Assembly (NCBI RefSeq): GCF_009617975.1
Contig: NZ_CP040089.1
Span: 360,001-392,000, forward strand
DNA: 32,000 bases
Direction: 5' to 3'
From: Candidatus Nanohalobium constans
Lineage (GTDB): Archaea > Nanohalarchaeota > Nanosalinia > Nanosalinales > Nanosalinaceae
Part shown: in pieces, positions 1,835 through 15,865 of the stretch
Numbering within the stretch: the first letter of the stretch is position 1
Layout: each line of letters starts with the position of its first letter
Notes under the pieces: model-generated
The model's database searches: none
Seen by the model: only the letters and a program-made list of their open reading frames with translations
What the model was told of the DNA's origin: nothing
Translations under genes and position numbers: made by a program

Positions 1835-3433
1835 TTGAAACCAAAAAGTACAAAGATACTTACAACACTTTTCTCACTTCTAATACTGACAGGAATAGCC
1901 ACAGCCACCGACCTACAAAACATAGAATCAATAACACCTCTAGGATCACAAAACATTAATGTCAACGGAACACTAGACCTAAACAATAACAACCCAATCC
2001 TAGCACCAACAAAAGTAGACGGAGTAGACCTAGACAACCCGGCATGGGGCCTATACCTCAACAACAACCAATACAGAATAGACACAGGAGACACAGACTC
2101 AAGATACCTAAACCGTAATGGCGATGCCATGACAGGAGATCTTAATCTGAAAGATAACAGTATAGAAAACGCTGTAATATCTCCTTTCTCATGGATAAGT
2201 GACCCGGTTATACTTGGTCATTACAATAATTACTTCATTGGTGCCGATGAAAAATGGAGTGTTTCATCCAACACTAATTGTCGTTCAGGAAGCTTAGAAG
2301 ATTTATTCGATCATCAGTGGAATTCAGGATGCGACTTCAACGATGCAGATCTGCCTGTAAAAATCAAAATAGATTTTAACAAAGCAAACACATACTCATT
2401 TTCCAACGACTTCGGCAAAATGATGCTTTACTTCGAGTACGGTAGACATGTTTCAGACGTCAAAGTCGAAAGATACCATGCCGGAGGAGACGACACCTGT
2501 GGAGACGGAAACGAATATTGGGATACCATATACCAAAACTCCAACTTTAAAGGCAAAAAGACCATAATAGACATGAAAGGAGATGGTCAGACCTGTCAAC
2601 TCAGAACCACACTGGACGGAAACTCTGAATATACCGACGACATAAGATTCAGCTCATGGAACATGTATCTCCACGGGGATAGAGGAACTCAAGGAGGCTC
2701 CCTAAGAAAATCAGGAGACAATATGTACGGACCACTGGATATGAGCAATAACCCAATCAAAAATATCGACTGGAGCAACAGCGACCAACCTCCTGGAAGT
2801 ACTGATGATCAAAACCTACAAGACACATCAAGGAACAGTGGTACAGTAACAATTCCAATAGAAAACGGAGGAAGCACGTCCTTCACCGACAAATACGAAG
2901 CCAATACAGACGCTGCCACGAGATGTGGAAGTGATGAAGTTCTTGAGGGAGGTGACAACTGTGTCTCAAATTATGAAGCCGCAGATGATGGAGATACTTC
3001 AAGCACAAACGAACTTCAGAACCTTGGTCAAGTCTTAAGTCGAGGAAGTGATGCCAACAACGCTAACCTAAACAATATTAACGATGTCAGATGGACTGAC
3101 AATTCCGGCAATGATATAGCAGGTTACGTGAACAGTGAGAAACAACTTGCATTCATCCAAAAATCAGGAACTGTAACCGGCGTAGCAATAAAAGCAGGCG
3201 ATCTAGACCTTGAAGGCAACTCCATAAACAATATAGGAGGACTTCAAAACTGTGGTGCAGACGAATTTGTCAACGGAAACGGAAACTGCGTGAAAGACAG
3301 CGATACCTCCAGCAGCCAAAACCTTCAACAAACACTGAGCAACGGAAACAGTGCAGGAACCAACAACATAGATCTAAACGGACAAAGCCTAACATCGTCA
3401 AATGGCGAAATTTGCGCCGGAAACAGATGCTGA
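1835..3433 (+). CDS. secreted fibre-like surface protein with tail-fibre-type motifs and a duplicated Cys-pair module
   Basis: TTG start followed by a Sec-type signal peptide (MKPKSTKILTTLFSLLILTGIATA). Motifs DSRYLNRNGDAMTGDLNLKDNSIEN (nt 2120-2170 covers the GDAMTG part) and SGDNMYGPLDMSNNPIKNI (2711-2767). Internal repeat CGSDEVLEGGDNCV...DTSSTNELQNL / CGADEFVNGNGNCV...DTSSSQNLQQTL. Confidence 0.75.
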   Translation: MKPKSTKILTTLFSLLILTGIATATDLQNIESITPLGSQNINVNGTLDLNNNNPILAPTKVDGVDLDNPAWGLYLNNNQYRIDTGDTDSRYLNRNGDAMTGDLNLKDNSIENAVISPFSWISDPVILGHYNNYFIGADEKWSVSSNTNCRSGSLEDLFDHQWNSGCDFNDADLPVKIKIDFNKANTYSFSNDFGKMMLYFEYGRHVSDVKVERYHAGGDDTCGDGNEYWDTIYQNSNFKGKKTIIDMKGDGQTCQLRTTLDGNSEYTDDIRFSSWNMYLHGDRGTQGGSLRKSGDNMYGPLDMSNNPIKNIDWSNSDQPPGSTDDQNLQDTSRNSGTVTIPIENGGSTSFTDKYEANTDAATRCGSDEVLEGGDNCVSNYEAADDGDTSSTNELQNLGQVLSRGSDANNANLNNINDVRWTDNSGNDIAGYVNSEKQLAFIQKSGTVTGVAIKAGDLDLEGNSINNIGGLQNCGADEFVNGNGNCVKDSDTSSSQNLQQTLSNGNSAGTNNIDLNGQSLTSSNGEICAGNRC

Positions 3434-3468
3434 AAACTCCTGAAAACACTTTAAAAAGCTGATAAAAA

Positions 3469-4098
3469 ATGGAAGACGAAATAGAAGACATTGTGGAAGA
3501 CGAAGAGAAAGCAGAAAAACTCTCACAGCTTATAGAACAAAAAATAGAAGAAAAAGTAGAACAAGTATCAAGCAGAGAAACAGAACAAAGAGAAAAAAAT
3601 ACCAAAGAAGAAAAAGAGGAAGTATCCCGCCGAGGATTCCTGAAAAAACTAGGAGCCGGAGCACTCGGCCTAGGAGCAGCCTCAATGCTCCCATCAGTCT
3701 CAGCCTACGACATCAAATCCTCAGACGGACTAGAAGTCTGGTCAGGAAGCAATCAACTAATAGACGCCAGTAGCGCACCCGTAGAGATAATGAACTCAAA
3801 TCTCCGCCTCGCCACTGGTCGGAGTATCGAGGATGGGAATGGGAACTCTCTGTTCAACATCCGTGACGGATACGGATATATGCTACACGGACAGTCTGAT
3901 GAAACCTCAAGAGCGTTGTTACATGATAAAACAATGGGCAACACTGCTCTAAGTTACACCACGTCGACCAGCGCACCTGGCACGTTGGAATTGACGAACG
4001 CGGATTTGAATGTTGGTTCTAATAAAATTAAAACCAGTAATTTTGAGGTTGTGGAAAACTCTGATACTAATAGTTTGGATTTCAATTATACGGGTTGA
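3469..4098 (+). CDS. Tat-signal fibre-like secreted protein with a long acidic pre-RR extension
   Basis: SRRGFLKKLGAGALGLGAASMLPSVSA matches the Tat consensus S/T-R-R-x-F-L-K plus an h-region and AxA-like site, with RR at residues 54-55. Mature part ends in GTLELTNADLNVGSNKIKT. Paralogue of 13791-14963. Confidence 0.8.
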   Translation: MEDEIEDIVEDEEKAEKLSQLIEQKIEEKVEQVSSRETEQREKNTKEEKEEVSRRGFLKKLGAGALGLGAASMLPSVSAYDIKSSDGLEVWSGSNQLIDASSAPVEIMNSNLRLATGRSIEDGNGNSLFNIRDGYGYMLHGQSDETSRALLHDKTMGNTALSYTTSTSAPGTLELTNADLNVGSNKIKTSNFEVVENSDTNSLDFNYTG

Positions 4099-4107
4099 TT
4101 CTGGTTT

Positions 4108-7056
4108 ATGAGTCTAGTTGGTTGGTGGAAGTTAGATGGCAGTGCTGAGGATTCTATAGGAAGTTATAATGGTTATGAGCAAGGCAGTCCTTCTTATTCA
4201 AATGGGAAAATTGGAGATTGTTATGACAATACTAGTGGAGGTTCCAACGGTGTAGAGTTGATTCGCCATAGTGATTTCGTAGAGTATGAAGATTACTATT
4301 CCTTTTCACTCTGGTTTAAATCTACTACTACATCCGGTAATGGAGGGGCGCGTATCATATCACGCGATTACTCGGAATATGCTACTGTCTTATTAAGCCA
4401 GAATGAGTCATCACCACAGTCCTCCAGTAATAAAGGTCTACCCGATTTCTCTGTAAGCGTGAATCAATGGCATCACTTAGCATTCTCAGTAGATGTGGGG
4501 TCCGATGAAGCAAGGATTTTCCTTGATGGCGAACTTGTCGGTACTAGCAGCACCCATAATACTGAAGCAAATCGCCCCTATGTTATTGGAGGAAACACTG
4601 AAGGAGATGGAGATATAAGCGGCAACCACTTTGAAGGCAAGATAGATGATGTAAGACTCTACGATCATAAACTATCAAAAAAAGAAGTAAAGCAGCTTTC
4701 AAGGGCGAAAGTTTTGCATTACAAGTTTGATGATTTTGCCGAGTATACTGAGAACATAATTAAGGATAGTAGGTTAGAGGAGCCTGACATGGATTATGGT
4801 TGGAAGGGAAATGCTTCTAGTAATACAGTGACTAAAGAAGATAATTCTGCCCCTTATCCCGAGGTTGTTCGTTTAGAGAAAACAGGTTCGGATGATCAGT
4901 GGCATGGAATGCATGATAATACAGAAGTTGTCAGTCTATCATCAGGAGATCATGTAACATATTCAGGGTGGTACAGATTAGAATCGGGTGCGACCCAGAA
5001 AAATTTAGCCGGGTTAAACTGGGTGTCAGATGGTTGGGATACTAAAGGAAGCAAGTCTATCACGATGGAGGATGATGAACTTTGGCACAGGTTTGAGATA
5101 ACAGTTGAAATAACTCAGGATTATTCTGACGGCTTTCAACCTGGTCTAAAATGGGCTTATTCAACAGACCAACAGTGGCTGGAGCTATGTGGCGTACAGA
5201 TAGAAACTAAAGACCATGCAACACCATTTGTAGCAGGAACACGGAAAGATAAAGTAGTTGATAGTAGCGGTCAAGGCAATCATGGTCCTCTGGATTCAGA
5301 TACTCCTACCTGGATTGAAAATTCGAAGATTGGATCTGGTGCTTACAGTTTTGAAGGAGACAAGATTCCTGTGAAAAATCTGTATTATGATTCTGCCAGT
5401 CAACTTCCTGAACTTACTTTGTCCGCATGGATTAAAGTTGATTCTAGTGGACAGGTAATTAATTCATGGGATAGAAGTGAGTTTTGGCGTTTTGGAGTTG
5501 GAGGAAGTACAGGTTCCAACGCTATAGATATAGGATTAGCTGATGAAAACGGCGTATCAGATATCAGTGCTAATACAGATGTAACAGATGGAAACTGGCA
5601 TCACGTGGTCTTCGTATATGACCATGGTTCTGTTACATTTTATCTAGATGGTGAGGTAGATGGAACAGCATCCACAGGCGGTAATGCCATAGGACAGAAC
5701 TTGACGAGATATGGTTTTATCGGCGACTACAGTGAAGCAGATTCATTCAATACAGGGTCCGGAGGATCATTTACGGGAGAAATGGATGATATAAGAATTT
5801 ATCACTCGGCACTCAACCAATCAGAAATCCAGCAACTCTACAAACAGAGAGCCAGTATTGATGGTGGCGGTAATCTTCATTCACATGAATTGCATGAAGC
5901 AGAAAATAAATTTGATGATTTTGCCGGCGGCGTAAATTCAGATACAGAGGTATTAGGAGCTCAGGACGGGTTTGAAAATGTTTACAAGGTCGATGCTAGG
6001 GAGAACGATTCCTATGAGAATTTCTTAACTAATTTAGTCAAGACCTCTGACTGGAGTAACTCGGGCTCAGGAAATTATCTTTATCTAGTGTACTGGGCTA
6101 AGGGAAACAACATTCCGGACTGGAGCCGCTCTGAAAACATACAATATCCTTCACCAAGCACATCCGAATACCAAAAGTATGTATTCCGAAATGATGGTCA
6201 AAATTCTAGAGATGAGTACTTCAGACAGTTCTTCGGCAACTCTGATAGCACCAGTTATGCATACATAGCAGACCCAAAAATCTTTACACAATCAGAATAC
6301 AAAAAGAGGAACGGCGTAAAATCCTCAGGCATTTACTCAATGGACGAATTCAACGAAATAGGGCCTGGCGCTGATTCCCTTGTCGGTTACTGGCCTCTGG
6401 ATGGCGACACCCGGGATTACTCCGGCAACGGCAACCACGGCACCAACAACGGCGCCACAGTTACCTCTGGACTGGGGCAGAGCGCCTATAGTTTTGATGG
6501 TACAAGTAGTTATATTTCAGGTTCTGGAAGCTTTACTTTCGATAATCTGACATTTAGTGCATGGGTAAGATATGATTCTGATGCGTCAGGAGGGTCTGGA
6601 AGCTTAGGAAATGCTGTTATTTCAAGTCAGTCACCTACTTTTCAATCTTCTCTGTATGCTGATATGGATAGCAATGAGCAGTTGTTTTATGTCTATCCAG
6701 ATAACGCTTCGTCTTCTACAATCGTATCTACCTCAATATCAAAAGGTAAATGGCTATTTGTTACAGGCGTAGTTAGAGGTTCAAATGTGGTTTTATACAT
6801 AAATGGTATCGAGAAAGGATCTAACACCTTAGATACCGACGGCAGTATATCATGGGGAGATCCTTTTATAGGCAGAGGCAACAGCAGCGAATACTTAGAT
6901 GGAAAAATCCAAGATGTAAGAATTTTCAACCGTGCCTTAACCGAAGAGGAGATCAAAACTCTCTACAACTTGACTGATCCTCGGCAGGATCAAAGAGCGA
7001 TCCAAGGAAAAGATGGAACTGTTTACACTAAAGGCGAATTCAACGAGTTGTTGTAG
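4108..7056 (+). CDS. 982-aa protein with three LamG/concanavalin-A-like lectin domains; no signal peptide
   Basis: Three copies of the Laminin_G_3-type pattern: LVGWWKLDGSAEDS...GKIDDVRLYDHKLSKKEV; VVDSSGQGNHG...GEMDDIRIYHSALNQSEI; LVGYWPLDGDTRDYSGNGNHG...GKIQDVRIFNRALTEEEI. The N-terminus MSLVGWWKLDG has no hydrophobic segment. The start lies 9 nt after the stop of 3469-4098. Confidence 0.85.
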   Translation: MSLVGWWKLDGSAEDSIGSYNGYEQGSPSYSNGKIGDCYDNTSGGSNGVELIRHSDFVEYEDYYSFSLWFKSTTTSGNGGARIISRDYSEYATVLLSQNESSPQSSSNKGLPDFSVSVNQWHHLAFSVDVGSDEARIFLDGELVGTSSTHNTEANRPYVIGGNTEGDGDISGNHFEGKIDDVRLYDHKLSKKEVKQLSRAKVLHYKFDDFAEYTENIIKDSRLEEPDMDYGWKGNASSNTVTKEDNSAPYPEVVRLEKTGSDDQWHGMHDNTEVVSLSSGDHVTYSGWYRLESGATQKNLAGLNWVSDGWDTKGSKSITMEDDELWHRFEITVEITQDYSDGFQPGLKWAYSTDQQWLELCGVQIETKDHATPFVAGTRKDKVVDSSGQGNHGPLDSDTPTWIENSKIGSGAYSFEGDKIPVKNLYYDSASQLPELTLSAWIKVDSSGQVINSWDRSEFWRFGVGGSTGSNAIDIGLADENGVSDISANTDVTDGNWHHVVFVYDHGSVTFYLDGEVDGTASTGGNAIGQNLTRYGFIGDYSEADSFNTGSGGSFTGEMDDIRIYHSALNQSEIQQLYKQRASIDGGGNLHSHELHEAENKFDDFAGGVNSDTEVLGAQDGFENVYKVDARENDSYENFLTNLVKTSDWSNSGSGNYLYLVYWAKGNNIPDWSRSENIQYPSPSTSEYQKYVFRNDGQNSRDEYFRQFFGNSDSTSYAYIADPKIFTQSEYKKRNGVKSSGIYSMDEFNEIGPGADSLVGYWPLDGDTRDYSGNGNHGTNNGATVTSGLGQSAYSFDGTSSYISGSGSFTFDNLTFSAWVRYDSDASGGSGSLGNAVISSQSPTFQSSLYADMDSNEQLFYVYPDNASSSTIVSTSISKGKWLFVTGVVRGSNVVLYINGIEKGSNTLDTDGSISWGDPFIGRGNSSEYLDGKIQDVRIFNRALTEEEIKTLYNLTDPRQDQRAIQGKDGTVYTKGEFNELL
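6907..7056 (+). repeat. copy 1 (in-gene) of the ~145-nt LamG 3'-end direct repeat
   Basis: Aligns by eye with 7932-8074 and 8775-8910. All three end in gagttgttgTAG. Confidence 0.85.
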
Positions 7057-7067
7057 CAGTTGGTTTT

Positions 7068-7553
7068 TTAGTTTTCTTTGAGTATGTTGTCTGTGTTTAT
7101 TTTTCGGTTGTCTTTTCGTTCTATTGTTTTGATTGAGTCTTTGAGTTCGTCTTTAGAGATTATTTCTTTTTGGTTTAGTAGTTTGGCGAGGTTGTTGAAG
7201 GCTATTGTCTGTACTTCTTGTTTTTCTGCGTATTTGGCGGCGGCTTGATCCATCGTGAAGAATATTGCGTTTCTTGATTCTGCTACTGTGATGGCTTCAA
7301 GTTCGCCCTTGTCAACTGATTGTTCGTTGAATCGTTCTCTGTACTGTTTTCTTTCTTCTTTGGCAGGTGTTTCAGTGTCTAACTTATCGAATATTTTGTT
7401 TGGGTATTTGTAGCCGTGTTCAAGCGGTTTTTCGAGTTCCTCTTCAATTTTAGGAGTAATGACGACTTTGTGGTTCTTAAATAGTTTTAGTGTTTCGTCT
7501 ACAAGTTCGCCTTTGGCTAAGACACTGGCTGCATCTGTATCGATTATAAGCAT
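7068..7553 (-). CDS. PIN-domain toxin (DUF3368 / COG2405-like)
   Basis: MLIIDTDAASVLAKGELVDETLKLF... and ...VDKGELEAITVAESRNAIFFTMDQAAAKYAEKQEVQ match the DUF3368 PIN pattern. I prefer ATG at 7553 (7 nt after the upstream stop) over the TTG at 7577 used in the ORF track. Confidence 0.75.
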   Translation of the reverse strand: MLIIDTDAASVLAKGELVDETLKLFKNHKVVITPKIEEELEKPLEHGYKYPNKIFDKLDTETPAKEERKQYRERFNEQSVDKGELEAITVAESRNAIFFTMDQAAAKYAEKQEVQTIAFNNLAKLLNQKEIISKDELKDSIKTIERKDNRKINTDNILKEN

Positions 7554-7560
7554 ACGGTTT

Positions 7561-7881
7561 TTACAGCCTCTTTTCAACTTCTTCTTTCTCTTCCTCGCCG
7601 CCTTCTCTGGTCTCTATGTTTATTCCTCTCTCCTTGAGTTCTTCTTTGTAGTTTTCCAGGTCCATTTCTGCGAGTTCGGCAGCCCTCATAAGTGAGATAT
7701 CCTTACTTTTGTAGAGCTCTACCGTTATCCTGATCCGTTTCTCAGGGTTCTTCCTCAGGAAAGTTCTGAATGCATCTCTCATGACATCGCTTCTGGAACT
7801 ATATTCTCCAGAATCAACGAGAACATCAATTTCATCCCTCATAGTTTCGGGTATACTGAAAGAAGTACTGGCACTTGTCAT
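7561..7881 (-). CDS. antitoxin, RHH (CopG-like) N-domain fused to a UPF0175-like HTH domain
   Basis: SFSIPETMRDEIDVLVDSGEYSSRSDVMRDAFRTFL is a ribbon-helix-helix pattern. VELYKSKDISLMRAAELAEMDLENYKEELKERGINI matches UPF0175, the usual partner of DUF3368 PIN proteins. ATG 7881 is preferred over TTG 7902. Confidence 0.7.
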   Translation of the reverse strand: MTSASTSFSIPETMRDEIDVLVDSGEYSSRSDVMRDAFRTFLRKNPEKRIRITVELYKSKDISLMRAAELAEMDLENYKEELKERGINIETREGGEEEKEEVEKRL

Positions 7882-7900
7882 AAACCTAACAATAGTTAGC

Positions 7901-7912
7901 AATATTTAATAA
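7901..7912 (-). promoter_or_regulatory. TATA-like box for the RHH-PIN operon
   Basis: aatatttaataa is centred about 25 nt upstream (minus strand) of ATG 7881. Confidence 0.3.
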
Positions 7913-7931
7913 CTTTAGCGCTGTACAGCAG

Positions 7932-8074
7932 ACCCAAGATATAATCCGGCGAATATGACTGCTGAGGAGGTTAAAACTCTATACAATTTGACTGATCCTC
8001 GACAAAGTCAGAGAGTGATCCAAGGAAAAGATGGAACTGTTTACAGTAAGGGTGAGTTCAGTGAGTTGTTGTAG
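7932..8074 (+). pseudogene. orphan copy 2 of the LamG gene 3' end (no gene body)
   Basis: Reads ...NMTAEEVKTLYNLTDPRQSQRVIQGKDGTVYSKGEFSELL* in frame with TAG 8072-8074. Stops lie immediately upstream. 14 mismatches to copy 1 over the last 96 nt (hand alignment). Confidence 0.8.
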
Positions 8075-8108
8075 CTGTAAGAATCTTGATTTTTAGGCGG
8101 TGATATTG

Positions 8109-8510
8109 TTATTTTTTGAATTCTTTTGGTTTATGGACTTCGAGTTCTTTTATTTTGTTGAAGTGTGAGGTGTTTCTTGTCACTATTTCGAGTTCTTCGG
8201 CGAGTATTATGGATGCGATTAGCAGGTCCATGTCGTCTACTTTGTTGCCTTGTCTTTCCAGTTCGGCTCTTTTCTTTCCGAAGATATGTGAGCTTTTTGC
8301 TGTAGTATGTAGAACTTTAACGTATTGTGCTAACTCTTCAACGTCTTCCAAGTGTTTTTCTGTCTTGGTTGATTTTTCGGCGCCGTGGTATAGTTCTGCA
8401 AGTGTTATAGAGGTTATAGCTATTTCCTCCTCAAACTCTTGGATAAACTCCTCGGTTTCTTTGTCTCCGCGTAGAAAATCGATGACAACATCTGTGTCGA
8501 AAACTTTCAT
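8109..8510 (-). CDS. vapC: VapC-type PIN-domain toxin
   Basis: MKVFDTDVVIDFLRGD..., ITSITLAELYHGAEKS..., DLLIASIILAEELEIVTRNTSHF: a classic VapC layout with conserved acidic residues. Overlaps the upstream antitoxin stop. Confidence 0.85.
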   Translation of the reverse strand: MKVFDTDVVIDFLRGDKETEEFIQEFEEEIAITSITLAELYHGAEKSTKTEKHLEDVEELAQYVKVLHTTAKSSHIFGKKRAELERQGNKVDDMDLLIASIILAEELEIVTRNTSHFNKIKELEVHKPKEFKK

Positions 8511-8713
8511 CAGTTGAATCGCCGGGACTCGCCTTCTCTGCGTTCGTAAATCTCATTTTTCATTTCTTCCAGGCTTTCTCCTTCCTCTGTCTCGTAGTCA
8601 GACCAGGCTCCAGCCATCTCTTCAAACGACTCCTTCGACTGTACCTCTGACCTTATCTTCCTTATCTCATCCTCTATCCTATTGAGTCTCGAGGTTATAT
8701 TTGCAGTTACCAT
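8510..8713 (-). CDS. vapB: small acidic antitoxin partner of VapC (VapB-like, family not assigned)
   Basis: 67-aa ORF immediately upstream of vapC, overlapping it by 1 nt. ATG 8713. AT-rich box 8734-8744 lies about 25 nt upstream. Confidence 0.6.
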   Translation of the reverse strand: MVTANITSRLNRIEDEIRKIRSEVQSKESFEEMAGAWSDYETEEGESLEEMKNEIYERREGESRRFN

Positions 8714-8733
8714 GACAGTTATTCATCGAGCAA

Positions 8734-8744
8734 AATATTAAAAT
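8734..8744 (-). promoter_or_regulatory. TATA-like box for the vapBC operon
   Basis: aatattaaaat lies 21-31 nt upstream (minus strand) of ATG 8713. Confidence 0.3.
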
Positions 8745-8774
8745 CTGATGGATAACCCTACTCTTAGGACCTCA

Positions 8775-8910
8775 GGTTTTCAACCGTGCTTTGACTGCTG
8801 AGGAGATTGAATCGTTGTATAATTTGACTGATCCTCGCCGGGATCAAAGGGTTATCCAGAGCAGTGATGGAACAGTTTACACTAAAGGCGAGTTCAGTGA
8901 GTTGTTGTAG
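8775..8910 (+). pseudogene. orphan copy 3 of the LamG gene 3' end (no gene body)
   Basis: Reads ...VFNRALTAEEIESLYNLTDPRRDQRVIQSSDGTVYTKGEFSELL* ending at TAG 8908-8910. 18 mismatches to copy 1 over the last 96 nt (hand alignment). Confidence 0.8.
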
Positions 8911-9031
8911 GAATACAGATTTTTGGTTGTGTCTTCACAGAGGTTAAATTTTTTATCTTAGAGTAGCAGGTTAACTTCAAGAATTTTTGGGAAAGAAAAC
9001 TCCTATTAACTCAATGCAAACCTAAGAAAAA

Positions 9032-9041
9032 CATTAATATT
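9032..9041 (+). promoter_or_regulatory. TATA-like box for 9063-10253
   Basis: cattaatatt is centred about 26 nt upstream of ATG 9063. Confidence 0.3.
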
Positions 9042-9062
9042 CTAAACTGATAAAATATTCCT

Positions 9063-10253
9063 ATGGGTTTGAACGCTGCGGAAGTAATTAATCAAGCAGA
9101 ACGTGAAGAGGACCAACTCTACGATGACATCAGGGATGTTGCAGAGTGGTTCCACGAAAGGGAAGGAAAAATGTTTGAGAGAAGTGAAGCCGAGAAGAAA
9201 ATTAGCTCCGACCTTCAGTTTGAACCAGAACTTGTCAGTGAAGTTCTTGAAGAACTGACAAGCGACATTGTCGACCCTGTAGCACAGATAAACAACTCCC
9301 AAGGAAACTACATAGGCATAATCAATTATGAAGAATTCGACGCAGGTTACGTCTACCTAGACTACCACGATATAAACGGCGTACAAAAGAAAGCCGTCTG
9401 CGCAACATGCGTACAAAACTCAGAGAAAGACTCACAGGTAAAATATACATCATCAACTAAAATACAAGATGAAAAAAACCCCGACTACACAAAACTAAAA
9501 GAAGAAATAAACCAACACCACCAAAAACACCACAACACCAAAATAGAAAAAATAAAAACCGGAGCAACACTAGCAAGCGGAACAACAATAGGAGGAAACC
9601 GCGCAGCAACAAGAAACTGGGTCAACAACAACGCCGACGTTCCCAACGCCGACCATGCTGACAACGCTGGACAGCTTGAAGGTAATACTACCTCGCAAGT
9701 TCAAAGCCACTCTCCACAGGATCACGGAAACGGGTCGCATACCGAAAACTATGCCTCGCAGAATGATTTAGGGTATCAACTTATCGCCTCGGACGGTGCG
9801 AGCGGGTATATCGGCTCTGACGACGATCCTGATGTCTATACGTTCGATATCGGCAGCGGTTACACAAAAAGAGTCTTAACCTTTGAGAACGCCTCCGATA
9901 TTGATGCAAAATTGGGGGCGCGGTCTCCAGGAGTGGATTCATGGGATTATGTAAACCACGCGGAAGGTGCGGGTACTTCAGAGTTCTTCGGACAGGTTGA
10001 TGTGGCCGAAAGCGGTGCTGACATCGGTCCTGGGTATGCGTCATTTGAGGTAACTGAAGTACCCAGACCAGATGGTTCGATAAGTGTGGGGATCACTCGG
10101 TGGCATGACGAGATGAGTTCGGGCAACTATTATATTACCACCGCAGACCCCACGTTCTCGTCATCGTTCAGCACTTTAGAAGTTGTAGTTCAGCCAGACC
10201 CTCTTGACGACGGAGACTATGATTTTAGTTTTGAAGCATACTGCTTGAGATAA
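9063..10253 (+). CDS. modular fibre-like protein: conserved N-module (CxxC), K/H-rich linker, tail-fibre-type motif, unique C-domain; no signal peptide
   Basis: The N-module DIRDVAEWFHEREGKMFERSEAEKK...CATCVQNSEKDSQVKY...KTGATLASGTTIGGN is shared with 10687-11364. It is followed by AATRNWVNNNADVPNADHADNAGQLEG, a motif also found in 13791-14963, then a unique 190-aa C-terminus. Confidence 0.75.
   Translation: MGLNAAEVINQAEREEDQLYDDIRDVAEWFHEREGKMFERSEAEKKISSDLQFEPELVSEVLEELTSDIVDPVAQINNSQGNYIGIINYEEFDAGYVYLDYHDINGVQKKAVCATCVQNSEKDSQVKYTSSTKIQDEKNPDYTKLKEEINQHHQKHHNTKIEKIKTGATLASGTTIGGNRAATRNWVNNNADVPNADHADNAGQLEGNTTSQVQSHSPQDHGNGSHTENYASQNDLGYQLIASDGASGYIGSDDDPDVYTFDIGSGYTKRVLTFENASDIDAKLGARSPGVDSWDYVNHAEGAGTSEFFGQVDVAESGADIGPGYASFEVTEVPRPDGSISVGITRWHDEMSSGNYYITTADPTFSSSFSTLEVVVQPDPLDDGDYDFSFEAYCLR
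9561..9599 (+). repeat. 39-nt junction box, copy A (identical to 11182-11220)
   Basis: ggagcaacactagcaagcggaacaacaataggaggaaac encodes GATLASGTTIGGN. It is identical in both paralogues although the flanks are strongly diverged. Confidence 0.9.
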
Positions 10254-10686
10254 TGCTCAGAGTTAATTACTCCAATTCGTGTAGGTCGCCGTCGGGTGTT
10301 GAGTTAACAGGCGCGTCTCGTTTCGGGCTGCCTGTCGCTCATGGTTATTTGTCTTTGGCTGCGTAGTCGTTACCTGACAGATGCCTTCAGCTACCAGTGC
10401 CTATCGGAGGTTACTGGTTTCAAATCAAATAGTATGATAATGGCAGATAGATTTATCGACCAAGTAGCACCTGCTCACTCCCTTAATCTGCTCGTACTAC
10501 GACATTTTATCTGACTCTTGGATGCCGAGATGGTTATGTATATTCTTCTTTAACTGATTCTTCAATCCGTGTAGGAGCTAACAGTGGCAATGGTAAAGTT
10601 GCTATGCCGATGAAATTTTGAGTGTAAATAGTCTGCTGGAAAAGCTTAATAAGTAGTTTACCTAATGGTTGATTGTAGGTCGTGTT

Positions 10687-11364
10687 ATGAAGGCTGCTGA
10701 AAATGTGTTTGAGGAAGTAGAGGAGGATAACGTAGATATAGACAATTATGTCAGAGATGTTGCTGAATGGTTTCATCAACATGAGGGAGAGATGTTTGAG
10801 AGAGAAGAGGCAGTAGAAAAACTTGAGCAAGACTTTGATCTTAATGAAAAAGTAGCATCCTGTTTAATTGGAGAACTTGTAGGAGATAAAGTAGATCCTG
10901 TAGTGCAGATAAAGACAGATGATACTAGATACATTGGAGTAGTTGATTTCCAAGAGTTTGAAGGCGCCTATGGCTACATAGACCACCACGATGTCTTGGG
11001 CAAGCAAAAAAAGGTTGTATGCGCACAATGCGTAAAAAACGCTGCAACCGACTCACAAGTCAAATTCGAAACCGAAAAAATCAAAAACACAGAGAAAAAA
11101 CCAGACTACACCCACCTAACCAATAAAATACATTCCCACTACAAGAAAAGCCACAAACAAAAACCTGCAAAAGTTGAAACAGGAGCAACACTAGCAAGCG
11201 GAACAACAATAGGAGGAAACATCTCCTGGCACGCAGGCAACGACGGAAAAAACTCAGGACTAATAGCAGACAAAGTAGACGGAAAAGATGCTAATGATCT
11301 CGGAACTACAGCAGCAGAAAAAAGGTTTATCGCACTCAGCAAAACACACGGTAATGGGCAATAA
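10687..11364 (+). CDS. paralogue of 9063-10253: same N-module, short different C-terminus
   Basis: YVRDVAEWFHQHEGEMFEREEAVEK...CAQCVKNAATDSQVKF...ETGATLASGTTIGGN, then ISWHAGNDGKNSGLIADKVDGKDANDLG. ATG 10687 is preferred over the TTG at 10669 because it aligns with the paralogue's N-terminus. Confidence 0.75.
   Translation: MKAAENVFEEVEEDNVDIDNYVRDVAEWFHQHEGEMFEREEAVEKLEQDFDLNEKVASCLIGELVGDKVDPVVQIKTDDTRYIGVVDFQEFEGAYGYIDHHDVLGKQKKVVCAQCVKNAATDSQVKFETEKIKNTEKKPDYTHLTNKIHSHYKKSHKQKPAKVETGATLASGTTIGGNISWHAGNDGKNSGLIADKVDGKDANDLGTTAAEKRFIALSKTHGNGQ
11182..11220 (+). repeat. 39-nt junction box, copy B (identical to 9561-9599)
   Basis: Same 39-mer at the equivalent codons of the paralogue. Similarity stops exactly at its 3' end. 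Confidence 0.9.
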
Positions 11365-11367
11365 ATT

Positions 11368-11730
11368 ATGAATATAGGAGAAGGAACGAGCGGCGATTTA
11401 GAAATTACGTCAAGTGACACATGGTATACTATTAGTGTTCCAGCAGGTGAAACATGGGAGTTTACTACTGTTGGTTTAAGTTCAGGAAATCGTAAGGGTA
11501 ATGCACAGAATAATCATATTAAGGTTGGGTATGAGGATTCCAACGGAAATAACTATGTCTTGGTAGATCCAACAGACGACATGACCCCTCCTGTCGGAGC
11601 ATCACAGTTCGAAAACAACCATAGTCAATCTAAAACAATCCCAATAGATGGAGATACAATGAATGGTCTTTCTGTTAGATCTTCTATTGGGGGATACACA
11701 CTTGTTTGGTCGGCTGTGAGGGTTTCCTAA
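11368..11730 (+). CDS. small beta-rich protein, first of a tandem paralogue pair (MNIGE...)
   Basis: Starts 3 nt after the stop of 10687-11364. MNIGEGTSGDLEITSSDTWYTISVPAGETWEF...YTLVWSAVRVS aligns with 11732-12085. Confidence 0.65.
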   Translation: MNIGEGTSGDLEITSSDTWYTISVPAGETWEFTTVGLSSGNRKGNAQNNHIKVGYEDSNGNNYVLVDPTDDMTPPVGASQFENNHSQSKTIPIDGDTMNGLSVRSSIGGYTLVWSAVRVS

Positions 11731-11731
11731 T

Positions 11732-12085
11732 ATGAATATTGGTGAAACAAAGACGGATACAATTACAGTAGCGGGTGATTCAAATGATACGATTACTGTT
11801 CCATCTGGGGAAACGTGGAAATTCACTCATATAAACGCAAATAATAATAGTAATATATTGAGTAACGCTAATTTGTGCATTGGATACACTCTTTCTAATG
11901 GGGATCACTACATAATCAAAAATCAACGTGACGATCATACACCAGCAATTGGCGGAGAAGTGGCTCCAATAGATGATGCGTCTATTTCCTCCATTATTAT
12001 TGATGGAGATGTACACGAGGGAGTTTCTATTTGGGCTGATAGCAATGATTTAAAAGTATATTGGGCTGCAACACGTATTTCGTGA
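11732..12085 (+). CDS. small beta-rich protein, second of the tandem paralogue pair
   Basis: Starts 1 nt after the previous stop. MNIGETKTDTITVAGDSNDTITVPSGETWKF...LKVYWAATRIS. Confidence 0.65.
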   Translation: MNIGETKTDTITVAGDSNDTITVPSGETWKFTHINANNNSNILSNANLCIGYTLSNGDHYIIKNQRDDHTPAIGGEVAPIDDASISSIIIDGDVHEGVSIWADSNDLKVYWAATRIS

Positions 12086-12310
12086 CGACAAAGAAAATTG
12101 CTACTGACTCAGTACTGTAGGGGAAAACGAGAGGAATTTTTGCTATTATATTTAGCTGTGTTCTTGATAGTGTATTTGGCACTTAGATGATCAAACACGT
12201 AAAAGAACCATGTTAAGTGCAGGTATCTTTTACCTTCGTTTATAGGATCAAATACCAATACAGTTTCAATTCATTGATGTATCTTCTTGAGGTCTAAAGA
12301 GTCATACGAG

Positions 12311-12318
12311 TTATAAAT
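12311..12318 (+). promoter_or_regulatory. TATA-like box for tatA
   Basis: ttataaat is centred about 25 nt upstream of ATG 12339. Confidence 0.35.
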
Positions 12319-12338
12319 CTACACAATAAATTGTAGGT

Positions 12339-12551
12339 ATGGCATTGATTGGTCCGGCGGAGATGGTACTTGTGGGTGCTGCTATTGTGGCATTGATTTT
12401 TGGTCCGAAAAAGCTTCCTGAATTGGCTCGTAGTTTAGGTGAGTCGAAGAAGGAGTTTAAGAAGTCTATGAAGGAGGCTGATGATTTGGCTGATGAGGCT
12501 ACTCCTGATGTTGAGGGGCAGGTGGAAGACATTAAAGGAGACCAGGAGTAA
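12339..12551 (+). CDS. tatA: twin-arginine translocase subunit TatA/E
   Basis: N-terminal TM helix followed by FGPKKLPELARSLGESKKEFKKSMKE, the canonical TatA hinge and amphipathic helix. Acidic tail. Confidence 0.9.
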   Translation: MALIGPAEMVLVGAAIVALIFGPKKLPELARSLGESKKEFKKSMKEADDLADEATPDVEGQVEDIKGDQE

Positions 12552-12561
12552 ATAACTCTGT

Positions 12562-13251
12562 ATGCAGGGATTGGATAGACATGTCCAGGAACTCAGGCAG
12601 AGGTTGAAGTTTGTTTCTATATTCTTTTTGTCATCGACGGTGCTTGCTTTCTATTTTTCATCTAACATTCTTAACTGGCTTCAGAATGATTTAGGTTTTT
12701 CTCTGCATGCTTTGACTGCGTATGAGGTTCTCTACACCGAGTTGATGATTGCTTTCCTCGGTGGTTTTCTGTTGAGTCTTCCTTTCATCCTGTTTGAGGC
12801 TTTGGCTTTCATGAAGCCGGGTTTGAAGGAGAGTGAGTACAAGGCTATGCGTAACTATCTTCCATTCTCGGTCTTCCTTTTCGTTACGGGCTCGGTATTT
12901 TCCTACAATTTTGTTGTGAAGACCAGTTTGAACTTTTTTCAGGCTACTGCGGGCTCAGCTGATGTAGCTGCCCTGTGGGGTCTGCAGAACACTATCGGTT
13001 TTGCGTTGCGTCTCTCTGCTTTCACAGGAATTATCTTCCAGCTGCCGATAGTTTCAATGGTTTTAGCCCATGCAGGAGTTCTTAACAAGGACAAAATGGT
13101 TGAATACCGCCCATACTTTTTTGTTGGCATCCTGCTGGTTTCAGCTCTAGCTACGCCGCCGGACGTGATCTCGCAGGCACTAGTCACAGTACCGGTTATA
13201 TTTCTCTACCAGATCAGTATCTTCCTGGTGTCCCGGATAGAGGAAACTTAA
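12562..13251 (+). CDS. tatC: twin-arginine translocase subunit TatC
   Basis: HVQELRQRL (the HLxELRxRL motif) at the N-terminus, multiple TM helices, and ATPPDVISQ near the C-terminus. Lies directly downstream of tatA. Confidence 0.9.
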   Translation: MQGLDRHVQELRQRLKFVSIFFLSSTVLAFYFSSNILNWLQNDLGFSLHALTAYEVLYTELMIAFLGGFLLSLPFILFEALAFMKPGLKESEYKAMRNYLPFSVFLFVTGSVFSYNFVVKTSLNFFQATAGSADVAALWGLQNTIGFALRLSAFTGIIFQLPIVSMVLAHAGVLNKDKMVEYRPYFFVGILLVSALATPPDVISQALVTVPVIFLYQISIFLVSRIEET

Positions 13252-13278
13252 AAACAGGTAGAAAACTAAAACTCTACC

Positions 13279-13716
13279 ATGGGCGATGGAAAAGTCGTAG
13301 ACGAGGTCAAAAAGAAATCCTGGAGAAACAAGAAATTAAAGGAAGCCAGCCTTGCCATCGGCTTAGTTCTCCTAGGCGGATTAGCTGCCTTCATGCTATG
13401 GTCGGGAACAGAAGATACTCCTGACAGTTACGCAGACGCAGGATCAGATACCGTACACAAAACACAGATGGATGCAGCCGAAGTCTTCAACATCACAGAC
13501 ATAGGTGTCGCACCAGCATCACACACCGTCAAACTAGGCAAATCAGTCGGCTTCAGAAACAAACTAGGCTCCGAAATATCCATAACCTTCGACAGAAGCA
13601 ACGACACCATAGAAATTCCATCAGGCAAATCCGAAACACTTCTAATCAACGGAATAACCTACTTCCAAATATCAGGCAACGACTACTCAGCCCAAGGAAG
13701 AGTAAACGTACAATAA
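13279..13716 (+). CDS. single-pass membrane protein with cupredoxin-like C-domain (third family member)
   Basis: TM helix ASLAIGLVLLGGLAAFMLW. C-domain VAPASHTVKLGKSVGFRNKLGSEISITFDRSNDTIEIPSGKSETL resembles the C-domains of the 499 and 1110 ORFs. Starts 27 nt after tatC. Confidence 0.7.
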   Translation: MGDGKVVDEVKKKSWRNKKLKEASLAIGLVLLGGLAAFMLWSGTEDTPDSYADAGSDTVHKTQMDAAEVFNITDIGVAPASHTVKLGKSVGFRNKLGSEISITFDRSNDTIEIPSGKSETLLINGITYFQISGNDYSAQGRVNVQ

Positions 13717-13790
13717 AAAAACACTCCGCACACAATAAACAATTTTAATCGACACAACCCAAAAAACACTCAGAGGCTCCACCAAGAACA

Positions 13791-14963
13791 ATGAAAAAAG
13801 ACTCTAATACCGACCAGAAAATCGAAGAAATAATAGAACAAAAAGTAGAGCAAAGAGTACAAGAAGAACTAGAAAAAAGAGGAATTGAAAAAGCAGAAAG
13901 CGACGAACAAGAAGAATCAAATAAAAAAGAAGTCACCCGAAGATCATTCCTCAAAAAACTAGGAGCAGGAGCAATAGGAATCAGCGCACTATCACTCAGC
14001 CCAGCCTCAGCACTAAACATCAGAAGCAACGACTTCAGCGTCTACGCAGGCAACGACTCAACCAAAGAACTCCAAGTAAACAGCGGCGGACCAGTAGAAG
14101 TTAAAAATTCTGACCTGGATTTAACTGGAGGCAACTTAGATAATACAACTTTTATTGATTTCGGAGATAGAGATGATGATGGATATTATTGGCGGCAAGG
14201 AGTTCTCTCAGATGACGAATGGTTTCTTCAGTGGAGAAATGACAACGGAGATAATAAAATACCTTTGAGAATACCGATGTCTTCTAACTACATCCGAATT
14301 GATGAAAATATTAGGTTGCAGACAGGTCAATCGCTTGAAGATGATTCGGGAAACAGTAGACTAGAGTTTAATTCATCTACGGCGACTCAGGTCCGTGATG
14401 GAGCAGGAAATCTGGCAGCACAGTACAAGGACTCCAACCATATAAAGTTCTTCCCAAGAAGCGGTCAACCTTTCATCATAAATGATCAGAATGGAGAGTT
14501 TAACGCAGTTAAATACACAACCGACTCAACCAAAGGAACTCTAGAGTTGACCAAAGCGAACCTAGACATGAGGAATAACAATATCAAAAATGTCGAAAAG
14601 ACAACATTCAACAACTCAGGCAATGACTTCTGGCGGATAAATGATGGTTCGGGAGGGTCCAATACCAGCCCGCACACAGCACGATTTGACGATAGAGACA
14701 TGAGGTTCTACTCGGGTACAGGAATTGGAACAGTCTGGAGGCTAAACCAAGACGGCTCAGTAGAATATCCCGAAGGACCAGTAACTATCAATGGAGACCA
14801 AGTAGCAACCCGGAAATGGACTAAAAATAATGCTGATGTACCCAATGCTGATTATGCTGATAGTGCTGGTGATGCTGACACTGTGGATGGTAGTAATGTT
14901 TTTGTGCAGTCTTCTCAGCCTTCAAATCCTTCTAATGGGGATATATGGGTTGATACTAGTTAA
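13791..14963 (+). CDS. Tat-signal fibre-like secreted protein, paralogue of 3469-4098 with a longer C-terminus
   Basis: TRRSFLKKLGAGAIGISALSLSPASA with RR at residues 50-51, after an acidic extension. GTLELTKANLDMRNNNIKNV. C-terminus VATRKWTKNNADVPNADYADSAGDADTVDGSNVF. Confidence 0.8.
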   Translation: MKKDSNTDQKIEEIIEQKVEQRVQEELEKRGIEKAESDEQEESNKKEVTRRSFLKKLGAGAIGISALSLSPASALNIRSNDFSVYAGNDSTKELQVNSGGPVEVKNSDLDLTGGNLDNTTFIDFGDRDDDGYYWRQGVLSDDEWFLQWRNDNGDNKIPLRIPMSSNYIRIDENIRLQTGQSLEDDSGNSRLEFNSSTATQVRDGAGNLAAQYKDSNHIKFFPRSGQPFIINDQNGEFNAVKYTTDSTKGTLELTKANLDMRNNNIKNVEKTTFNNSGNDFWRINDGSGGSNTSPHTARFDDRDMRFYSGTGIGTVWRLNQDGSVEYPEGPVTINGDQVATRKWTKNNADVPNADYADSAGDADTVDGSNVFVQSSQPSNPSNGDIWVDTS

Positions 14964-15865
14964 TGGCGGAACACATTCTTCATGGTCCTGACAGTGAGCA
15001 ATGGACTGTTCCTGAGGGGGTCACCGAAGTTACTATTGAGTGCTGGGGTGGTGAAGGAGGAGATGGAAATGGAGATACTGATGATGGAGCCGGAGGTGGA
15101 GGCGGCTATGTGAAAGGAGATCTATCTGTTACTCCGGGAGAAACCCTGCATTTGGTAGCAGGCGGAGATGCTTACCGTGGAGAGGATTCCGGCGGATTTC
15201 CTAATGGAGGTAGCGGAGACGTCAGAGGTACGAATATGGAGTATCAATTGGTAGAAAGTGGGGGCGGCGGTGGTTCCTCACACGTTATGCAAGGTGGATC
15301 TGACCGCCAAAACGATGTTGTTATCGGGGCTGGCGGCGGTGGTGGAGGTGCAGCCGTTAGTTCAGGAGGTGGCGCAACTAACTATGATGACGGTAAGAGA
15401 GGTGGTCACGCGAACGGAGGTGATGCACCAGATACAATAGAATACGAAGGAGGGCAGGGAGGAGAAAGCAGCAAGTCAGATCCAACAATTGGAGAAGATG
15501 GAAATCAAGAAAAAAAGACAAAGGATGGAGACGCATATCTTGGAGCCAGTGGTGGAGGCGGAGGAGGTTTCAATGCTGGAAGCCGCGGCATAGTAGATAT
15601 TACCTTCAGCAGAAACGACCTCAACGCCACAGGAGGAGGAGCAGGAGAACAATACACTCTAGGCGTAACCAATGTAACAACAAAAGACAATGAAAATACA
15701 GGAAACGGCAAGGTCAAAATTACGTACACAGAGCCTGTAACTGTGAAATACTGGGATGGATCAAAATGGGTTTCAGGCAGGCTAAAATACTGGGATGGAT
15801 CAAAATGGGTTATGGCAAACGAAATAAGCAACTTTGACGGCTCACAATGGCAGACAACATCCTAA
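14963..15865 (+). CDS. glycine-rich-domain protein (phage-associated Gly-rich type), no signal peptide
   Basis: WTVPEGVTEVTIECWGGEGGDG followed by four poly-Gly tracts (GAGGGGGY, ESGGGGGSS, GAGGGGGGAA, GASGGGGGGFNAG). C-terminal KYWDGSKWV repeated. The ATG overlaps the upstream stop (TAATG). Confidence 0.75.
   Translation: MAEHILHGPDSEQWTVPEGVTEVTIECWGGEGGDGNGDTDDGAGGGGGYVKGDLSVTPGETLHLVAGGDAYRGEDSGGFPNGGSGDVRGTNMEYQLVESGGGGGSSHVMQGGSDRQNDVVIGAGGGGGGAAVSSGGGATNYDDGKRGGHANGGDAPDTIEYEGGQGGESSKSDPTIGEDGNQEKKTKDGDAYLGASGGGGGGFNAGSRGIVDITFSRNDLNATGGGAGEQYTLGVTNVTTKDNENTGNGKVKITYTEPVTVKYWDGSKWVSGRLKYWDGSKWVMANEISNFDGSQWQTTS
15746..15811 (+). repeat. two perfect 27-nt copies at 39-nt spacing inside the Gly-rich gene
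   Basis: aaatactgggatggatcaaaatgggtt occurs at 15746-15772 and 15785-15811. It encodes KYWDGSKWV twice. Confidence 0.9.

Follow-up and report, generated by a model that had tools for sequence, protein, structure and literature searches.

The window analysed here, a 32-kb stretch of the Candidatus Nanohalobium constans chromosome, carries an intact gene for a LamG protein (100% identical over its 982 aa to the N. constans protein P0001 at NCBI), followed by two toxin-antitoxin (TA) operons, TA1 and TA2, each with a further copy of the LamG 3' end on its far side. Comparison across the LamG family showed that the N-terminal domain and a C-terminal tail of ~31 aa are conserved and the middle is variable, and at the 3' side of these hypervariable genes the tail is the sole conserved DNA. 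The conserved neighbour 3' of the array encodes a product that has its N-terminal domain in common with the protein encoded at 10669-11364. Coordinates of all features are collected in the table.

Table 1. Features of the LamG gene, the TA array and its downstream neighbour (positions in the window).
Feature	Position	Strand	Basis and remarks
LamG gene, intact, 982 aa	4108..7056	+	Three Laminin_G_3 domains; Pfam Laminin_G_3 3.4e-64
T1, live gene end (reference copy of the repeat), through the TAG stop	6923..7056	+	Repeat search, alignments
Spacer, 11 nt, T1 stop to convergent TA1 toxin stop	7057..7067	.	Part of an oligo-T run; sequence read
TA1 toxin, DUF3368, PIN-like, 161 aa	7068..7553	-	Identical to P0121 with precomputed PF11848
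TA1 antitoxin, RHH + UPF0175, 106 aa	7561..7881	-	Pfam UPF0175 3.2e-09, RHH_8, RHH_1
TA1 putative promoter/operator block (CATAAnCTTAACAATAGTTAGCAATATTTAATAACTT)	7882..7917	-	Hardly varies between the window, L026 and L027
Junction, ~35 nt, TA1 module to T2	7918..7952	.	No significant LamG similarity; part weakly resembles the L027 flank
T2, orphan LamG 3' end, no gene body, upstream in-frame stops	7953..8074	+	Repeat search, alignment
Spacer, 34 nt, T2 stop to VapC stop	8075..8108	.	Sequence read
TA2 toxin, VapC (PIN), 133 aa, tRNA(fMet)-endonuclease type	8109..8510	-	Pfam PIN 2.8e-14; NCBIfam VapC 4.2e-27
TA2 antitoxin candidate, 67 aa	8510..8713	-	Stop overlaps VapC start; position only
AT-rich region upstream of TA2 (AAAATATTAAAATC) and T3 junction	8714..8776	.	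No significant homology to the LamG gene
T3, orphan LamG 3' end, abrupt left edge	8777..8910	+	Repeat search, alignment
Conserved neighbour 3' of the array	9063..10253	+	Gene next to LamG on its 3' side in L015/L017 has 47% aa identity

As an earlier sequence-only reading of this DNA had proposed, the LamG gene end recurs twice downstream in the same orientation, giving three direct copies (the live end T1 and the orphans T2 and T3), each of which ends with GAGTTGTTGTAG, at 7056, 8074 and 8910. A repeat search placed them in one family (D1, with T1 as the reference copy) at 6923-7056, 7941-8074 (75%) and 8777-8910 (80%), and gapped local alignment gave clear homology to the gene end at 7964-8078 and 8777-8910. 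The repeat had been put at ~145 nt, but secure homology spans only 134 nt in the third copy and 111-122 nt in the second; the hand-counted mismatches over the last 96 nt (14 and 18) were exactly reproduced, and the orphan translations given at that time also hold. A chance origin of the repeat is excluded because, on both strands of the 32 kb, every other 96-nt stretch stays below 55/96 matches. Over the last 111 nt, T1 and T2 form the closest pair (84% identity, against 78% for T3 with either), and the abrupt left edge of T3 begins with a 13-nt block identical to that of T1 at 13/13 positions (TTTTCAACCGTGC). T2 and T3 begin at different positions of the gene. Both orphans are closely preceded by in-frame stops and hence lack a gene body, in line with the initial reading, and no significant LamG homology or trace of a body was found left of ~7953 (T2) or 8777 (T3); the orphans themselves contain 0 stops and 0 frameshifts across 38-45 codons. 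The array is unlikely to be an assembly artefact, given the 16-22% difference between copies, the closed genome and an independent metagenome assembly in which this architecture recurs at a different gene.

Each interval between the gene-end copies holds one intact minus-strand TA operon, exactly as first described (RHH/UPF0175 and DUF3368 at 7068-7881; VapC and a 67-aa partner at 8109-8713). The DUF3368 domain of the TA1 toxin was not reached by the Pfam scan of the window and was assigned through the precomputed domain of P0121; 28 homologues of this toxin were found, at 50-91% identity. Homology of the TA1 module to two other loci, L026 and L027, ends at 7916-7923, so that the near-invariant block upstream of the antitoxin forms the end of the recurring module; this block may act as the TA1 promoter. 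The VapC protein of TA2 is 33-41% identical to plasmid VapC proteins. Pfam and NCBIfam profile searches gave no credible family match for its 67-aa partner, a candidate TA2 antitoxin solely by virtue of where it lies and of the overlap between its stop and the VapC start.

Divergence among the three copies is of a coding type. In all three pairs, dN/dS is 0.12-0.13 (dS 0.7-1.1), synonymous differences exceed the neutral expectation (P = 7e-5 to 1e-3), and third codon positions hold 11/18, 15/24 and 14/24 of the differences. Even between the two orphans dN/dS is 0.12 (P = 7e-5), with synonymous sites near saturation and amino acids conserved. As the differences are mostly synonymous, the orphans must have diverged while they were working gene ends, and did not decay in place. 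This substitution pattern contradicts the possibility that the target was duplicated in place at insertion, by a long target-site duplication or template switching, with copies that were identical at first and orphans that have decayed since: direct repeats of similar size do flank each insert, but non-coding copies that decay neutrally would reach dN ~ dS, and we regard such an origin as highly improbable. The copies are also mosaic (P = 0.0006 in a runs test on nucleotides and P = 0.004 on codons), a pattern that points to homologous exchange among them.

The TA1 module is mobile independently of the LamG gene. It is a discrete unit of ~870 nt that recurs in unrelated contexts, with 89% nucleotide identity in L026 and 80% in L027, and both loci show the same architecture. 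At L026, an unrelated convergent gene has copies of its 3' end, 121-129 nt long, on both sides of TA1 (91% identical, dN/dS 0.16); next come a second, distal PIN-type TA pair with a pseudogenised toxin and then a third, partial gene-end copy. At L027, TA1 lies within a 1.58-kb segment that has tRNA-Thr(CGU) on one side and a 23-nt copy of the tRNA 3' end (22/23 identical) on the other, a mini-island that bears the classic integrase footprint.

A relative in which the locus is syntenic (L015/L017) provides the state without the units. There, a homologue of g3469, a single LamG gene with the same tail and a homologue of g9063 follow one another, and the LamG stop is separated from the g9063 homologue by 61 nt, with neither a TA operon nor an orphan copy. 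This locus is an empty site, the sole one found, in a distant relative (47-65% aa identity). It bears on the two origins initially considered, namely TA units inserted serially, each with a replacement 3' end of its own, and relics of a tandem LamG array. In the latter, three adjacent LamG genes with the conserved tail would have received TA modules between or inside the second and third, and their bodies would have been deleted with the tails left behind. Tandem LamG genes are indeed common in relatives (L018, L021, L028); in the viral relative L018, two live neighbouring paralogues share DNA only in their last 175 nt (77-79% identity; pS 0.43, pN 0.15), a divergence that is the same as that of T1 and T3, and a low dN/dS would likewise be expected of paralogues that were once live. 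However, the syntenic relative has but one LamG gene and body sequence is absent left of T2 and T3; each orphan would need a deletion from ≤11-34 nt past the previous stop to ~30-35 nt before the surviving 111-134-nt copy, on the TA promoter side, and such a deletion would be needed four times, L026 included. Tandem paralogues moreover do not explain why TA modules lie between gene-end copies at a tRNA gene and at an unrelated gene. The relic option, the main rival, is weakened by these points, yet the L018 pair matches the divergence, and we consider it unlikely but worth keeping in mind.

Profile searches found no integrase or other recombinase in the whole 32-kb window, the units included; the first reading had likewise seen no integrase in the layout. 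A further origin deserves weighing, in which no site-specific enzyme took part and 'tail + TA' DNA of related cells or viruses entered by homologous recombination at the conserved tail, either by one crossover that involved a circularised fragment or by homology-facilitated illegitimate recombination, both of which duplicate the tail. The tail as sole conserved DNA at the LamG 3' side, the mosaic copies, the differing left edges of T2 and T3 and the units without extra DNA, together with the lack of a recombinase in the window, all agree with this reading; it leaves the arrival of TA1 at three unrelated targets unexplained, cannot account for the 23-nt repeat at L027 (too short), and presupposes a donor in which a TA module already followed immediately after the orthologous gene. 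We judge it to be quite improbable.

Akin to the array described here, integrative elements at tRNA 3' ends are bracketed by displaced 3'-end copies, and successive units can pile up at one site, where derivatives that lack an integrase (CIME-type elements) persist. The likeness lies in the bracketing copies, the stacking and the persistence without integrase, and the TA1 family itself occurs in such a tRNA-Thr island (L027); in N. constans, however, the target is protein-coding and the repeats exceed the 23-nt tRNA repeat 5-6 times in length. Orphan modules behind rhs/cdiA likewise follow a full-length gene, in units that start with a fragment of its conserved region and carry a toxin and its antidote, older units being distal. 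The N. constans locus shares this order of gene, unit array, gene fragment, toxin plus antidote and, as proposed below, older distal units, but the rhs/cdiA fragment precedes an in-frame toxin tip, whereas here it is the extreme C-terminal tail, with a separate TA operon mostly on the opposite strand.

A close parallel in a protein gene is e14 at E. coli icd/icdC, where the duplicated piece runs for 165 nt through the stop codon with 92.7% identity, 11/12 differences at third codon positions and an abrupt left edge. In e14/phage 21 at icd as in N. constans, the last 111-165 nt of a protein gene are directly repeated through the stop, the gene stays intact by virtue of its proximal copy, an orphan copy closes the insert at the distal end, the repeat begins abruptly on its left side (T3) and the differences are mostly synonymous (PMC13626634). 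Unlike e14, which spans 15 kb and has its own integrase and excisionase, the N. constans inserts measure 0.7-0.9 kb and consist of a TA pair only, two units are stacked, the copies are far more diverged (78-84%), and the host is a DPANN archaeon.

The array had also been called integron-like. Its layout invites this label, with short cassettes and TA modules that have their own promoters, mostly in reverse orientation as in chromosomal integrons, whose TA cassettes are described as often reversed, self-promoted and thought to stabilise the array (PMC13108822). The repeats of ~135 nt would then be structured recombination sites such as attC; they are ordinary coding sequence homologous to the upstream target gene and differ between arrays, neither of their strands forms a hairpin (z-scores -0.9 to +1.2), the units lack terminal inverted repeats, and no integron integrase was found in the 32-kb window. 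The failed hairpin test and the missing integrase contradict an integron-like array, to which we attach almost no credence, and the label does not hold.

We favour, as the probable though by no means secure origin, serial integration at the LamG 3' end, in which each insert brought a replacement end and was reduced, or limited from the outset, to an addictive TA module. Of the first option in the sequence-only reading, the serial insertion of units with replacement ends remains the best fit (coding-constraint divergence, the empty site, the tRNA-Thr island, L026 and e14); its site-specific part is less well placed, with no recombinase found in the window and mosaic copies that also allow homologous recombination. 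Two TA islets would have been inserted one after the other by recombination within the last ~115-135 nt of the gene, each incoming piece with its own gene-end copy, of which the latest now completes the reading frame (T1), and the formerly live end would each time have been pushed downstream and kept as an orphan, T3 first and then T2. With this order, the distal unit (vapBC and T3) would be the older and the proximal one (DUF3368/UPF0175 and T2) the younger; the T1-T2 pair as the closest and the decayed distal toxin at L026 both fit a youngest proximal unit. The abrupt left edge of T3, with its 13/13 match to T1, and the recurrence of the TA1 module in unrelated contexts also speak for serial integration. 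T2 lacks the 13-nt block common to T1 and T3, and TA1 has no flanking repeat in two other contexts (L028-L033 and L034); both observations speak against serial integration. The mosaic copies also count against it because they point to homologous exchange, as does the distance of the relative that has the sole empty site, and the differing starts of T2 and T3 mean that the two are not accounted for by one site-specific enzyme acting at a single core.

The present inserts are self-promoted TA modules alone. They may be larger integrative elements stripped to their addictive part, or non-autonomous units of ~1 kb moved by a recombinase supplied in trans or through homologous recombination at the tail; under erosion, units without any other element DNA are surprising because the equally dispensable orphans survived. 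In light of the proposal that mobile elements bring in TA systems and that the genes linked to these are then streamlined away, for which TA 'islets' alone between core genes are cited (Belot et al., 2026; PMC13617665), we note that the N. constans modules resemble such islets in being lone TA systems amid chromosomal genes, away from any mobile-element genes and clustered in variable regions, and that the pseudogenised distal toxin at L026 resembles the erosion step. That work concerns bacteria, N. constans being an archaeon, and a term search of its main text returned no mention of direct repeats or tRNA. Finally, the modules may stabilise the array themselves: cells losing a TA module would be killed, which would oppose the loss of units by recombination between the repeats.

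The LamG gene (4108-7056) encodes a protein of 982 aa that is 100% identical to an N. constans protein at NCBI, and its 3' end recurs twice downstream. The live end (T1, which keeps the LamG open reading frame (ORF) intact) and the two orphan copies (T2 and T3) share the same orientation, end in GAGTTGTTGTAG at 7056, 8074 and 8910, respectively, and are each closed by a TAG stop. An earlier sequence-only reading had described these repeats accurately, down to the 14 and 18 mismatches it counted by hand over the final 96 nt, which proved exact, and it was also right that neither orphan has a gene body upstream: in-frame stops lie directly upstream of both. Elsewhere in the window, neither strand has a 96-nt segment with as many as 55/96 matches to the repeat. 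The left end of T3 is identical to T1 at 13 of 13 positions, with nothing homologous further left, and the edge of T2 lies 15-40 nt further in, without that block. Similarity to the LamG body left of T2 and T3 was not significant (230/500 and 382/500 shuffles, respectively, scored at least as well), and a common boundary at ~160 nt, suggested by eye as a leftward extension of both orphans, was therefore dropped.

Predicted toxin-antitoxin genes and orphan LamG gene ends (window coordinates)
Feature	Position	Strand or orientation	Basis or remark
Unit 1 toxin, DUF3368, PIN-like	7068-7553	minus	family assignment
Unit 1 antitoxin, RHH/UPF0175	7561-7881	minus	domain assignment
T2 orphan end	7953/7964-8074	same as LamG gene	secure homology 111-122 nt
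Unit 2 toxin, VapC, PIN	8109-8510	minus	domain assignment
Unit 2 antitoxin candidate, 67 aa, no known family	8510-8713	minus	overlaps VapC gene
T3 orphan end	8777-8910	same as LamG gene	secure homology 134 nt

Each interval between the copies holds exactly one minus-strand toxin-antitoxin (TA) operon, as that reading had stated, i.e. TA1 (unit 1) between T1 and T2 and TA2 (unit 2, vapBC) between T2 and T3. In type II TA operons the gene for a small DNA-binding antitoxin precedes, and adjoins or overlaps, that for a toxin of a known family; both units have this two-gene layout and are predicted modules of this type, the antitoxin candidate and the VapC gene of unit 2 being linked by a start/stop overlap. 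Outside the repeats the units have no sequence in common (best local score 25). They encode TA pairs only, and no recombinase (integrase or other) was found in them or in the window ORFs scanned; the window also contains no tRNA gene and no Rfam family. Exact-sequence look-up of VapC, the long TA1 ORF and ribosomal protein L21e returned no record. Elsewhere in the window, between a ksgA-like gene and the CTP synthase gene, an overlapping gene pair (20029-20801) resembles a HEPN (RNRIVHEYD motif)/nucleotidyltransferase TA pair, a family assigned by eye only, and 30781-30996 encodes a DUF433 protein (Pfam 1.6e-19), for which no partner gene was identified; DUF433 proteins are frequent antitoxin-like partners in two-gene modules. 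Neither of these loci is surrounded by duplicated gene ends.

The layout had been called integron-like. Integrons are recognized by an IntI-type integrase with an adjacent attI site and by cassettes whose borders are attC sites, able to form imperfect hairpins. When both strands of each of the three repeats were folded as single-stranded DNA, the z-scores were -0.9 to +1.2 and no attC-like hairpin emerged. No terminal inverted repeats flank the units, no integron integrase is encoded in the 32-kb window, and the repeats have their origin in the target gene itself. An integron-like system thus fails its defining tests, and the label is not established.

In all three pairs of copies, the orphan pair T2-T3 included, dN/dS is 0.12-0.13 at a dS of 0.7-1.1, and synonymous differences exceed the neutral expectation (P = 7e-5 to 1e-3). 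Copies that had been non-coding since a duplication in place would show a dN similar to dS, and the low ratio observed argues that each orphan served as a functional gene end through almost the whole time since the copies separated, and was orphaned recently. A simple duplication of the target in place, followed by decay, is ruled out by this pattern, as the synonymous excess extends to T2 versus T3. Identity among the copies is 78-84%, highest between T1 and T2, whereas the LamG tail of the closest relative detected is 66-73% identical to them. Positions at which one copy departs from the other two are clustered (15 runs versus 24 expected, P = 0.0006; at the codon level 7 versus 12.7, P = 0.004), which points to an exchange of short tracts among the copies or their ancestors.

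A comparable pattern is known from integration of the e14/phage 21-icd type, where the two copies of the gene end differ mainly synonymously because both were functional ends. Our measurement in E. coli K-12 (background on this case in PMC13626634) gave 92.7% identity between the last 165 nt of icd, which reach into the e14 prophage, and the icdC fragment displaced to its far end, with 11 of the 12 differences at third codon positions and a similarity that ends abruptly at the left edge. The window repeats are akin to those of e14 in that they are of like size and orientation, run through the stop codon and show the same substitution pattern, and the left edge of T3, with a block of 13 identical positions that T2 lacks, appears similarly abrupt. 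Unlike e14, the window has no integrase, carries a stack of two units and has nothing but a TA module as inserted DNA. In outline, the model of Belot et al. (2026; PMC13617665) has TA systems arriving on mobile elements, linked genes being streamlined away and the TA system then eroding, and it offers a route to bare TA islets like those in the window.

The TA1 module also occurs in other places. Its DUF3368 toxin has 28 homologues (50-91% identity), and at the DNA level window 7047-7916 is 89% identical to an ENA metagenome scaffold (L026) and window 7091-7923 is 80% identical to a second contig (L027). The homology stops within a few nt of the toxin stop codon on one side and just past a nearly invariant predicted promoter block on the other, and these sharp ends mark TA1 as a discrete unit of ~870 nt that occurs in unrelated places. 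In L026 the module is convergent to an unrelated gene (ending in EGEDYRVYNVAVGVK before its stop), lies 5 nt past the stop codon of this gene and is directly followed by a 121-129-nt orphan copy of the gene's end (91% identical, dN/dS 0.16). Behind these lies a second TA pair (L026 825-1424), composed of a 47-aa ORF and a PIN-type gene that, at its end, passes into a third copy of the gene end, 27 nt long; with two in-frame stops in its frame, this PIN toxin is a pseudogene. L026 thus has the architecture of the window, but at another gene and with decay of the distal unit. In L027 the module resides in a 1.58-kb segment flanked by a tRNA-Thr(CGU) gene and a copy of its last 23 nt (22/23 identical), a classic integrase footprint, and no integrase or remnant of one was found inside the segment, non-coding parts included.

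Flanking repeats are not a constant companion of the module: none was found around TA1 behind small LamG genes (L028-L033) or in another genome of Nanohalobium (L034), where TA1 lies between the genes for eIF-1A and RIO1. Viral contigs contained no match to the TA1 promoter pattern, and neither they nor plasmids contained relatives of the TA1 toxin. About ten of the toxin homologues are on contigs of only 1.0-1.2 kb, close to what the module with a repeat on each side would measure (870 + 2x150 nt); these could be assemblies broken at the flanking repeats or could simply reflect the ~1-kb median contig size of the collection.

That T2 and T3 are relics of a tandem array of LamG paralogues, the second option of the sequence-only reading, seems unlikely to us. 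In a virus-like contig (L018), the similarity between live tandem LamG paralogues is indeed confined to their last 175 nt (77% identity), which mimics the divergence of T1-T3. An origin of this kind, however, requires four precise deletions, should have left some trace of the gene bodies of T2 or T3, of which there is none, and leaves both the unrelated gene of L026 and the tRNA of L027 unaccounted for. On the same viral contig a duplicated gene end also brackets an insert, but on the 5' side: 88 nt of the terminase 5' end recur as a diverged direct copy (74%; 19601-19688 and 20714-20801) upstream of a gene for a 319-aa HTH-domain protein, which directly precedes the terminase gene.

We lean instead towards serial integration of the units at the 3' end of the LamG gene, with each insert bringing a replacement end. 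The vapBC unit would have entered first, displacing T3, and the DUF3368 unit second, displacing T2, which would make T1 the last-arrived gene end; we infer this order because T1 and T2 are the closest pair and because the decayed toxin in L026 is the distal one. Serial site-specific insertion had been the first option of the sequence-only reading, and it is the better of the two in view of the coding-type divergence, an empty site in a relative (L015/L017), the arrangements in L026 and L027 and the likeness to e14; its 'site-specific' part is not established, given the mosaic copies, their differing edges and the failure to find a recombinase in the units or the window ORFs scanned. The responsible enzyme may be a site-specific recombinase that acted in trans or has since been lost; the footprint at the tRNA gene of L027 and the resemblance of the edges to those of e14 speak for it. 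Alternatively, the units may have entered by homologous recombination in the conserved LamG tail, a route consistent with the mosaicism of the copies, with left edges that differ between T2 and T3 and with the lack of other element DNA. Very doubtful is a more far-reaching version, in which nanohaloarchaea harbour a class of ~1-kb integrase-less TA cassettes whose att-like site mimics the end of a host gene (LamG, the unrelated gene or tRNA-Thr) and which are inserted serially behind that gene by a recombinase that the cell or a virus provides in trans. If true, such cassettes would be a gene-capture and gene-stabilising platform, integron-like in its working, with coding 3' ends in place of attC hairpins.

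The empty site comes from L015/L017, which is syntenic with the window and carries homologues of the genes on either side of LamG and the array, i.e. that starting at 3469 and that starting at 9063 (47% aa identity), with a tail-bearing LamG gene between them. Only 61 nt separate the LamG stop from the homologue of the latter gene, with neither TA operon nor orphan copy; it is thus an unoccupied site, but in a distant relative only. Orphan tails were likewise absent from the roughly nine related loci examined. Searches of genome, viral and metagenome contigs with the tail matched only the generic LamG-domain end, and a tail-specific alignment detected three viral contigs that match the LamG tail, none of which has an orphan copy. 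A 66-aa C-terminal query in a word-index protein search returned no candidate, though the identical full-length protein is in the database; short queries can therefore go entirely undetected, and this result is a false negative.

LamG relatives conserve an N-terminal domain and the C-terminal tail (LYNLTDP..Q..IQ..DG.VYTKGEF.ELL) around a variable middle, and are frequent in virus-like settings: a Baseplate_J gene adjoins in L019, and in L018 (identical to the IMG/VR contig L025) LamG lies alongside terminase and BppU_N genes. LamG proteins with the same tail are encoded on these and other virus-like contigs (L020, L023 and L024; some from IMG/VR), so that N. constans may have obtained its chromosomal gene from viruses or exchanged it with them. 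It resembles virus tail-fibre and baseplate proteins, and its role is probably contact with the haloarchaeal host. The gene belongs to a 14-kb block (1835-15865) whose products are secreted or tail-fibre-like and include several pairs of diverged paralogues (499/1110, 9063/10669, 11368/11732 and 3469/13791), two proteins with twin-arginine signal-like motifs (RRGFLKKLGAGA) and a glycine-rich-domain protein at 14963-15865; tatA-like and tatC-like genes (12339-13251) interrupt it.

To our knowledge, very little has been learned so far about mobile elements in DPANN archaea. Gene-end integration of the e14 type, tandem accretion and TA islets are kinds of event already described; new here are the DPANN archaeon, the probable host-contact gene and the TA module as the only cargo. 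We take the window locus and two other nanohaloarchaeal contigs to show 3'-end integration with a replacement end in this group, the surviving footprint of which is an addictive TA module and displaced gene ends. A diverged copy of a gene's 3' end beside a TA pair is a search key that could reveal integration sites, and perhaps the missing recombinase, also in genomes without annotated integrases. For the host gene, the orphan ends are ready recombination substrates for a tail swap or the deletion of a unit, deletions that would be penalised by killing after loss of the TA module. They are also dated fossils of earlier LamG alleles at a gene of host-contact type, and would thus record turnover at a host-interaction locus.
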